A stretch of 62,399 nucleotides of DNA, counting the filler, from Hausera hauseri (Eukaryota), in the NCBI GenBank assembly GCA_046269625.1. It is 13 parts of 13 records of this genome, joined end to end, with 100 filler letters (N's around TTAATTAATTAA, not from the genome) between each part and the next. Parts side by side here need not be neighbours in the genome. Positions count along the whole stretch, not along the records: positions 42,532 to 47,012 come from JBJURY010559784.1; 12 more parts are not named here. One strand, 5' to 3'. The translations under genes were made by a program, and so were the position numbers. This document shows positions 44,740 to 47,012 of the stretch, piece after piece; position 1 is the first letter of the stretch; every line of letters starts with the position of its first letter. The notes under the pieces were generated by a model. The model ran no database searches and was not told the DNA's origin. It was given only the letters and a program-made list of their open reading frames with translations.

Positions 44740-47012
44740 GAATCTAATTGGTTGATCAGTTTGCTCACCATAATTGTGTTATTAAAACAAATGGGTGCTG
44801 TTACTGTTTACGATTGTGATAAATTCAAACATAGACAAAAATATTCGTTAATGGACTTAGAAGCATGTGAAGATGCCAGACCACATAAACTGGAAACAAA
44901 AGAAAAGAGCTATTTTCTATATCAACAACAAGAGTTGATATCTTTGAATGGCATGGAATGTATGCTGAGACGATCTTGTAGTATTTTTCACTGTGGGTTA
45001 ATGCACGGACACTACTCAATAATTAAACCAACAACTCCTCCGATTCCCATGAATTTGGAAAGGCAACATTGTAAAGAAGCCCGAGAAACTAAAAAACTAA
45101 AATGGGATAGCATGGAATTGGAAATGCAGCCCGGAAAAATAATCAGAGCGTATAAGATAGTAGGCGGAAGACTGGATATGCATAACATGCACTGTAGTAG
45201 AACGGAATACGATACCGGAAAAGGACTGGAAGCAAACGTAGTGGTAGTAGACTTTTACGAATCGAAAATGCCAGTTCAAAAAGTAATGTTCCATAGCGTC
45301 ACTAAGTTATATACTGAGGATCAAAAATGTCACATGCAAGACGGAACTTGTGCCTTCAGAAGTTCTGTCGTCATATGGGAACCGCCCACCGGAAAAGCCT
45401 GTACTTTTATTAAGATTAAGGAATTGAAGTTTAATGAAACTACCGGAAAACGATAAGTAGACAAATCCGACATCAGTTCAAGAGCACGGGAAGACGTATC
45501 AGAGCATCATACACCTACGATATTAATCGCTGATCAACATGGATTGAAATTCATAAAAAAGAACTGATTTCAAGATGTGAAATAGTAATGTTCACCACTA
45601 ATTACGAAGCGTTCTTCGTCGTAGAAACGGAGATAAACGCAAAAACGTACAATCTGGAAACACAAAACATTCGAATTGAAGATTATCTGAAAAATAGAAA
45701 CGATTATTTTTATTATAAAGGACAAGTCGGAATAGCTGAACCATACCATAAAATGATAACTAATGACTGCAAATTAGATACAGAAATTATGAGGACAAAA
45801 TTATGAGGCTAAACTCACCAATTATTCCCATGAGAGAAGGAATTTTTGGTCGAGTTACTGGCCAAGTTTTACTGACATATGAAAGCGAGAAAAGAGATGT
45901 ACCAATTAACGTTGAAGAAAAACGATGCATACAGGAGCTTCCTGTGATATACCAGAACACTCCACGTCTAGCCATGCCTCTCACTAGAGTATTGCTTGAT
46001 AATGCGACACAACCAACCATTCTAAAAGATTGTAAGGCAAGTTTAAGTGAACCAGTGTTTAGGCGTAGCGAAACGAATTGGTTTAGCTTACCCAATGGAG
46101 GTGTCACTATTATTCATAAAAAACTAACTGGAATTAATTTATCAAAAGGAATTACCGACGAAAAATTCCAGGATACATCTCAAAAAGGCATTTACAGACC
46201 AAAAGAGATCGAGGCGATACCCGGTACCAGGCTAAAAGGGAATCCTTGCTTGGCGCGAACCATTACCAGCGAGTAACCACAGAAATACTCTACAAAATAT
46301 GGGGAAGATTTTTAATTTTTGGACAAGCCGCATCTGAATTCTTAGCAATTTATTTCATGGTATAACTGGTAAAGGCGGTAATTCAAGCGGTTATAAATGG
46401 GTACAAAATATTCACGCTAACAGGATTTTACTGTAAAATTTTAACTGCAATTATTAAACCGTTTGGCAAAATGCTTAAAGCATACGAAGAAAACCGATGG
46501 AACAATGACGTTTAACGCCATGTCGGCTACTAGAATTACAAACGTCGAGCAAGACCCATTTTTCGACTGAAACGCAAGGTTAAGAAACCAATGATGCGAA
46601 GAAATAATTCAGATGATGACGAGCCTAAGAGAGGAGAAGCAATCCTCGGACAAAATAGACATAAAATGTATTCAGTGATTAGAGCACCCTTACCTATCAT
46701 GCCGCCAACGGCTCCAATATATGAAGATTGTGAAAAAACATCTATGGTATCATATAGATCGGCATTCTGTCAGAAAACCTTCAGCTATGAAGATCCTTAT
46801 GAAGGAACAAAACAATATGGAGTATTAAAGAAAATGCAGATCACTAATCAACGACGAGCAAAGGACGACCACGGGATATTGTACTCACCGAGGATAGCTC
46901 GCAATATAAAAACAAGATCGACAGTTTGGGGGAAACAAGGAGTGAAGTCGTTCCAAAATCCAATAGTACAAGAACCATTAATTAGAAACAATACGAATAA
47001 CATGGCAGTTAA
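44740..47012 (+). pseudogene. env: Envelope glycoprotein, chuvirus-like, second subfamily
   Basis: LISLLTIIVLLKQMGA then VTVYDC..YSLMDLEAC; CMLRRSCSIFHCG; CHMQDGTC..W; GRVTGQVLL..CIQELPV..PLTR; TM GQAASEFLAIYF; tail with PTAP. Confidence 0.8.

Follow-up and report, generated by a model that had tools for sequence, protein, structure and literature searches.

The window analysed here, a stretch of 62,399 nucleotides from the genome of Hausera hauseri (GCA_046269625.1), carries at positions 44809-46512 (+) the broken gene of a viral-type glycoprotein (G, also referred to as Env), and this locus raises the question of which fusogen family the glycoprotein belongs to, what kind of element carried it, and whether that element captured it independently from a chuvirus, as an earlier note on this DNA had proposed.

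The Window and Its Three Glycoprotein Copies

The window consists of 13 short contigs, separated by twelve N44-TTAATTAATTAA-N44 linkers. As these artificial linkers join separate contigs, sequences that face each other across a linker are not true neighbours. Copies of the glycoprotein are found on three different contigs, at 1-3989 (-), 42532-47012 (+) and 57503-62399 (-), which are numbered here as copy 1, copy 2 (the locus in question) and copy 3. The three contigs are 4-5 kb in size and hold parts of elements only; a reverse transcriptase (RT), integrase or LTR was found on none of them, and the 4.5 kb contig of copy 2 also lacks a capsid and protease of its own.

The motif YDC..SL.D...C is matched three times in a six-frame translation of the window, once in each copy (44809-44868 (+), 2694-2753 (-) and 58262-58321 (-)), and C-x4-G-x-C-x8-W can be recognized by eye in the translations of all three. 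The motifs G[EQ]VL, C..ELPV, P[VL]TR and FLAIYF are present within G in two of the three copies and are absent from copy 3 because the contig edge at 57503 cuts this copy. The claim that the three copies share all of these motifs thus stands for the first two patterns, but has to be narrowed to two copies for the later four. Over 206 amino acids, copies 1 and 3 share 71% identity, and copy 2 is only 31% and 28% identical to copies 1 and 3, respectively, bearing out the earlier proposal of at least two subfamilies.

The contig of copy 2 begins with a polyprotein region that appears coiled-coil-like by eye (42532-43503 (+)) and is common to the gag-bearing contig 19493-23591 (52% identity over 158 amino acids, E 9e-49), followed by a ubiquitin/SUMO-like domain (43792-44022 (+)). 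A hydrophobic, signal-like helix (44752-44808 (+), Kyte-Doolittle 19-mer mean of 2.04) lies directly 5' of Env inside the former polyprotein frame. The Env ectodomain and transmembrane region are of the class III type, as recognized by Pfam family PF24664 on three pieces and by tblastn of intact relatives, which runs through frames 1, 3, 2 and 1; the cytoplasmic tail (46534-47010 (+)) harbors a PTAP late-domain-like motif at about 46705-46716, and the contig ends before any protease. The contig of copy 1 holds, in order, a Bcl-2-like domain in frame with Env (2916-3236 (-)), a signal-like helix, the Env ectodomain, a transmembrane segment and a PSAP-bearing tail (together 670-2813 (-)), and an aspartic protease remnant (77-666 (-); RVP E 1e-3, relatives' profile E 6.5e-17 and 7.1e-6) that is divided between two frames and has a broken catalytic motif. 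The position of this remnant 3' of Env indicates the order env then pol. On the contig of copy 3, a Gag capsid remnant (59222-60067 (-); relatives' capsid profile E 5.8e-27, 47% identity to the relative P0001) precedes a Bcl-2-like domain (58481-58801 (-)), a signal-like helix and the first half of Env (57503-58381 (-)).

All three copies are damaged. The G of copy 2 has frame changes near 45555, 45810 and 46230 and internal stops at 45454 and 46363, that of copy 1 has two internal stops besides a single frame change, and that of copy 3 has one frame change and is truncated by the contig end. The three window copies are dead or incomplete and unable to make protein, and the possible infectivity suggested in the earlier note does not extend to these broken copies.

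A Chuvirus-Like Class III Fusogen

In a Pfam scan of 48 window pieces, PF24664, the Monjiviricetes fusion protein (curated cutoff 27 bits), was matched by seven pieces, all within the three G copies, at E 1.2e-23 to 4.9e-4. Three of these belong to copy 1 (670-3251; E 1.2e-23, 2.1e-19 and 3.1e-13, with 83, 69 and 49 bits) and three to copy 2 (44638-46273; E 3.4e-14, 4.9e-4 and 1.5e-5, the first at 52 bits), and the single piece of copy 3 (57504-58136; E 5.6e-6) scores 25 bits, slightly below the cutoff. The fold was assessed on the intact relative P0002, modelled at a pLDDT of 83 and 29% identical to copy 1 in a 59-row alignment. Among predicted viral structures, the closest to this model is a chuvirus-type G, that of Tacheng tick virus 4 (E 1.1e-43, 23% identity), with the first herpes gB at E 1e-14; among solved structures in the PDB, the top match is herpesvirus gB (E 1.9e-14, TM-scores 0.2-0.4). 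Judged by this model, the G family is a chuvirus-like class III fusogen, the fold being established for P0002 rather than for a window copy. The class III assignment made in the earlier note is thus upheld by PF24664 in all three copies and by the matches of the P0002 fold to both chuvirus G and herpes gB. A haemagglutinin lead from the ESM Atlas (0.83, all leads being below 0.9) is weak against these matches and was set aside.

The resemblance to both viral groups has limits. Herpesvirus gB provides the top PDB fold matches (E ~2e-14), but the identity is 9-13%, the TM-score of 0.2-0.4 comes from a monomer model with an extra domain, and the gH/gL/gD partners are absent from the elements. The G of Chuviridae/Jingchuvirales and its mosquito BEL/Pao copies (PMC7642597, PMC10084718) share the Pfam family and the fold, but identity is about 20%, and G of the window type is internal to a Gypsy polyprotein, neither stand-alone nor BEL/Pao-linked. 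In 12 of 18 relatives, Env directly follows a signal-like hydrophobic helix, and 17 of 18 have a transmembrane segment 520-640 amino acids past the G start.

Gypsy Polyproteins Around the Glycoprotein

A word-seeded protein search with the longest G piece of the window gave no match; a full HMMER search with this piece found 96 relatives, and a further search that started from one relative's G gave 12 matches, nine of them new. A Pfam scan covered 37 of these proteins (28 of the 96 and the nine new ones). An RT is present in 12 of the 37; all 12 carry G in a common reading frame with RVT_1, PF17917 and PF17919 and upstream of them, and 11 have an integrase after RNase H. The best PDB match of one relative, P0104, is Ty3-G Gag-Pol (E 1.8e-126). 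Peptidase_A17, DUF1758, DUF1759 and DUF5641 are the families that we take to mark BEL/Pao elements, and at E up to 0.01, no BEL/Pao-type family was found in any of the 37. The single long frame of intact relatives runs from Gag through accessory domains, which are ubiquitin-like and in some cases Bcl-2-like or ankyrin, and a class III Env to PR-RT-RNase H-IN. The polyproteins of P0004, P0006, P0097-P0099, P0103 and P0104 each hold several D[TS]G motifs of the aspartic-protease type, and in six RT-bearing relatives, a D[TS]G motif is found far 3' of RT, past the integrase core; such extra motifs go unmentioned in the Burro passage of PMC6431247.

As the G contigs are without RT, the Gypsy linkage of the window copies is established through the relatives only, and their membership in this group is probable by homology. 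The suggestion that the context is Gypsy-like rather than BEL/Pao agrees with the Gypsy type of all 12 RT-bearing relatives and with the capsid and protease remnants on the contigs starting at 57503 and 1. From gag to G, the contig of copy 3 is collinear with P0001 at 43-47% identity. For the subfamily of copy 2, an indirect gag link may be provided by the separate contig 19493-23591 (+), which carries a gag with a capsid (profile E 3.1e-13) and a CCHC knuckle (zf-CCHC 23.2 bits, above the cutoff). Another contig, 4090-10115 (+), encodes a BIR domain (E 1.3e-8), with a RING-like motif recognized by eye, upstream of gag (capsid profile E 1.3e-9), and its downstream pieces are 40-57% identical to P0010, a relative with PF24664 at 1345-1952; it is plausibly the same kind of element, tied to G through P0010 only.

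A G tree was built by a quick search from 49 of 108 rows, leaving out relatives shorter than 600 amino acids or with less than 85% coverage. In this tree, the window copies group with 20 relatives bearing gag, PR or RT domains and with P0002, apart from 24 other rows, at an SH-aLRT of 93, which is below the 95 mark. The stand-alone G P0046, on a long branch, falls inside the retroelement G group, and copy 2 is itself a long branch in no starred group. The motif YQESEF-x5-EC is found in copy 1, copy 3 having YQESEF, and it occurs in 12 of 22 relatives with retroelement domains versus none of 24 stand-alone G proteins. The G proteins of the 12 RT-bearing relatives are 23-95% identical to each other, and their identities follow those of RT (Spearman rho 0.85 over 66 pairs, permutation p 0.0002), a correlation that near-identical pairs inflate. 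Such tracking of G and RT distances indicates that G has long been inherited together with pol.

Accessory Domains

The ubiquitin-like domain of copy 2 is detected by a profile made of relatives only: of 571 window pieces, this one scores best (E 1.3e-7), followed by the next at E 0.65, and Pfam alone gives only UBX at E 0.068. It was undetected in copies 1 and 3. Conversely, the relatives' profile for the Bcl-2-like domain finds none in the pieces directly upstream of the copy 2 Env. This domain is present in 10 of 105 relatives, many of which are fragments. In copy 1, it is matched by PF00452 at E 0.026 and by the relatives' profile at E 3.9e-14; in copy 3, by PF00452 at E 3.4e-4 and by BOK at E 0.037. 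A model of the copy 3 domain (pLDDT 70) compared with VIA gives 16 top rows that are all of the Bcl-2 family, at Z 9.2 to 7.1, although helical bundles can reach a Z of 9 by chance, and Foldseek finds no match for it at E up to 0.001, the best being a Bcl-2 at 0.031. Each of these results is weak alone, and it is their agreement across Pfam, BOK, VIA and Foldseek that supports the Bcl-2-like call.

Further accessory features were observed. A GRP[RK] motif, which we take to be AT-hook-like, is found upstream of Env at about 44212-44240 (+) and 58965-58990 (-), and likewise in seven long relatives. The BIR and RING-like remnant 5' of gag occupies 4091-4936 (+), a layout like that reported second-hand for the Burro1 IAP region. 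A dUTPase gave no Pfam match in the window or in the scanned relatives; the dUTPase-like domain of Burro was an HHpred detection (PMC6431247).

Other Contigs in the Window

The remaining contigs hold a variety of other sequences. Two further decayed Gypsy pol contigs are found at 10216-14994 (-), with a frame containing a hydrophobic stretch 3' of the integrase, and at 23692-28950 (+). The RT on the former is 37-42% identical to that of the relatives and falls outside the G-bearing group, a comparison that rules it out as the partner of the window G copies. The contig 47113-53269 (-) carries a Gypsy RNase H-integrase with long accessory frames 3' of it; one piece, which by eye looks like what is left of a DEDDh exonuclease, weakly matches (E 2.4e-4) a piece of the next contig, 53370-57402 (+). 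At 37676-42431 (+) lie Polinton/Maverick-like fragments of an endonuclease VII (E 2.4e-6) and of a protein-primed DNA polymerase B (E 5.3e-8). An intronless open frame of 1357 amino acids at 33503-37573 (+) strings together host-gene-like fragments, among them a kinase (PF00069, E 1e-13), a ribosomal S18-like part (E 0.095), for which a homolog search gave no match, a PH-like part (E 0.002) and, presumably, a dihydroorotase-like stretch seen by eye; it looks like an element that captures gene fragments. The contig 15095-19392 is a TC/TG-rich microsatellite with internal N gaps that produces long spurious frames.

Likeness to Burro and to Schmidtea Errantiviruses

The planarian Burro elements, giant members of the Gypsy group, are described as encoding Gag, a Ubi/SUMO-like and a BCL2-like domain, and an in-frame Env followed by PR, with additional BIR and ankyrin domains (PMC6431247). 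Their Env matches fusion proteins of arthropod and fish mononegaviruses, and the elements were proposed to be proviruses (PMC6431247). According to a second-hand account, Burro1 has a RING and BIR region that protects stem cells and has expanded in Geoplanidae and Dugesiidae (PMC13465017). By domain order, the sequences described here resemble Burro/GYPSM1 in their CCHC Gag, Ubi/SUMO-like and BCL2-like domains, and an Env with matches to mononegavirus fusion proteins in frame before PR; ankyrin is found in relatives, and BIR, tied to G through P0010, may be a further trait in common. Env is placed between the BCL2-like domain and the protease in copy 1, as in Burro, and copy 3 preserves gag, the Bcl-2-like domain and Env. 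Decaying fragments with stops and frameshifts have also been reported for one Dugesia species (PMC6431247). In contrast to Burro, the window copies are short broken fragments, no MATH domain was seen in them, and copy 2 is without a Bcl-2-like domain; moreover, HHpred connected the Burro Env with that of gypsy and with F-type fusogens (PMC6431247), as opposed to the gB/chuvirus-type fold found here.

A second set of known elements comes from a survey that includes nine flatworm gB-type GAG-ENV-POL elements, six of them from Schmidtea (PMC13524379). Smed_errantivirus_1-6, of the HSV/gB type and group Platyhelminthes_C1a, share with the window elements the gene order, the gB-type fold and, by eye, the Env motif and cysteine run, but they are intact and present in 1 to 215 copies (PMC13524379), unlike the broken window copies. 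The string YQES occurs four times in the ENV table of PMC13524379, in each case in a Schmidtea errantivirus row. Both the Burro Env and that of the Smed errantiviruses look like the same chuvirus/gB-type protein, and we infer that these are the same elements. The main text of PMC13524379 contains none of the terms Burro, Bcl, apopto-, late domain, ESCRT or polyprotein, and the passages covered of PMC11410931, PMC13238120 and PMC8532177 add nothing on Env. The three window copies thus very probably derive from Burro-type Ty3/Gypsy elements, which are gB-type gag-env-pol errantiviruses, and survive as decayed fragments, most likely in the genome of a triclad flatworm. This system has largely been published already, with descriptions of the family from 2018-2019 and a further survey from 2026.

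Origin of the Glycoprotein

The independent capture from a chuvirus that the earlier note proposed did not emerge from these data; G appears to be an old, element-bound lineage with distances that track those of RT. That a Gypsy lineage recently and independently captured a chuvirus G is quite improbable. It would account for the closeness of chuvirus-type G among the predicted viral structures (E 1.1e-43 versus 1e-14 for the first herpes gB), and since the tree keeps the element-borne G apart from the clade of stand-alone G proteins, an acquisition apart from that of the mosquito BEL/Pao elements is possible. However, identities of 23-95% that track RT indicate long inheritance with pol, the element G is not nested among stand-alone G proteins, and an ancient acquisition has been argued for in PMC13524379. 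An affiliation of G with BEL/Pao elements, as in mosquitoes, has a published precedent (PMC7642597, cited in PMC13524379), and the window holds no RT linked to G, yet this affiliation is scarcely credible given 37 relatives without a BEL/Pao-type family and 12 of 12 RT-bearing ones in the Gypsy set. In 114 arthropod elements, the Chuviridae-like G of mosquito BEL/Pao elements itself adjoins a gypsy pol (PMC13524379).

Plain endogenous insertions of a chuvirus or mononegavirus G that came to lie near retrotransposon debris are likewise extremely improbable. In arthropods, Gypsy fragments do occur beside such G sequences without clear capture (PMC10084718), but here, the copy 1 G is in frame with a Bcl-2-like domain, the gag-to-G collinearity of the copy 3 contig with P0001 is retained, and the single-frame gag-G-pol relatives argue against chance proximity. 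Furthermore, no nucleoprotein or polymerase family, and thus neither chuvirus N nor L, was found in the 48 window pieces scanned, and the neighbours of G are gag-side domains and a protease. A different kind of alternative accepts the element identity but holds that Env builds no infectious particles, having an intracellular role or being a passenger. This is somewhat unlikely, although all three window copies are broken, the literature covered yielded no reports of particles or fusion, and PMC13524379 calls the entry mechanism of gB-type elements unknown. Against it, proteins with identities of 23-95% have kept the ectodomain fold and the cysteines as well as the signal helix and the transmembrane segment, and tail motifs are enriched.

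A Possible Plan for an Enveloped Element

With the copies read as remnants of Burro-type Gypsy elements, established polyprotein biology suggests how the intact elements might work. The internal signal helix would thread Env into the ER, where signal peptidase would release the Env N-terminus and leave the ectodomain lumenal, and the single transmembrane segment would put the Env tail and Pol back in the cytosol. The element's own protease would then free the enzymes. Trimers of Env may form the fusogenic envelope of a particle that passes from cell to cell within the animal, and the producing cell may be kept alive by the anti-death domains.

The Env tail is of particular relevance to such a plan. 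The 571 window pieces contain P[TS]AP at two places, the Env tails of copies 1 and 2. PTAP, PPxY or YPxL motifs are present in the Env tails of 8 of 14 relatives, versus 0.88 expected by shuffling and 1 of 14 for upstream controls, in a set (16 minus two near-duplicates) whose members are kin and not independent. The wider patterns were picked post hoc, and P[TS]AP itself is found in only 1 of the 14. A Tyr-Pro pair may just mark a position where a protease cuts. The enrichment of late-domain-like motifs in the tail hints at budding through ESCRT.

Taken further, Burro-type elements might be enveloped, infectious flatworm retroviruses of an unusual plan with an ER-threaded Gag-Env-Pol, an unlikely proposal that we put forward tentatively. 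Under this plan, the signal helix, once cleaved, would stay on Gag and the Bcl-2-like domain and anchor them in the membrane, Pol would enter particles via the Env tail and not through a Gag-Pol fusion, and ESCRT late domains would reside in the Env tail instead of in Gag. No report of such an Env-tail late-domain or budding plan was found in the literature searched; the primary accounts of Burro, namely Grohme 2018 and a Dev Cell study of Burro1 from 2026, lie outside that scope and may cover the Env fold, topology and tail motifs.

Implications

By itself, the window finding adds decayed copies to a known family and therefore matters little. Through Env, it ties together the literatures on Burro and on the gB-type errantiviruses of Schmidtea. 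If true, budding by way of the Env tail combined with the packaging of Pol would represent a distinct way of building an enveloped retrovirus, and this Env-tail plan would bear on the movement of class III fusogens between retroelements and RNA viruses.
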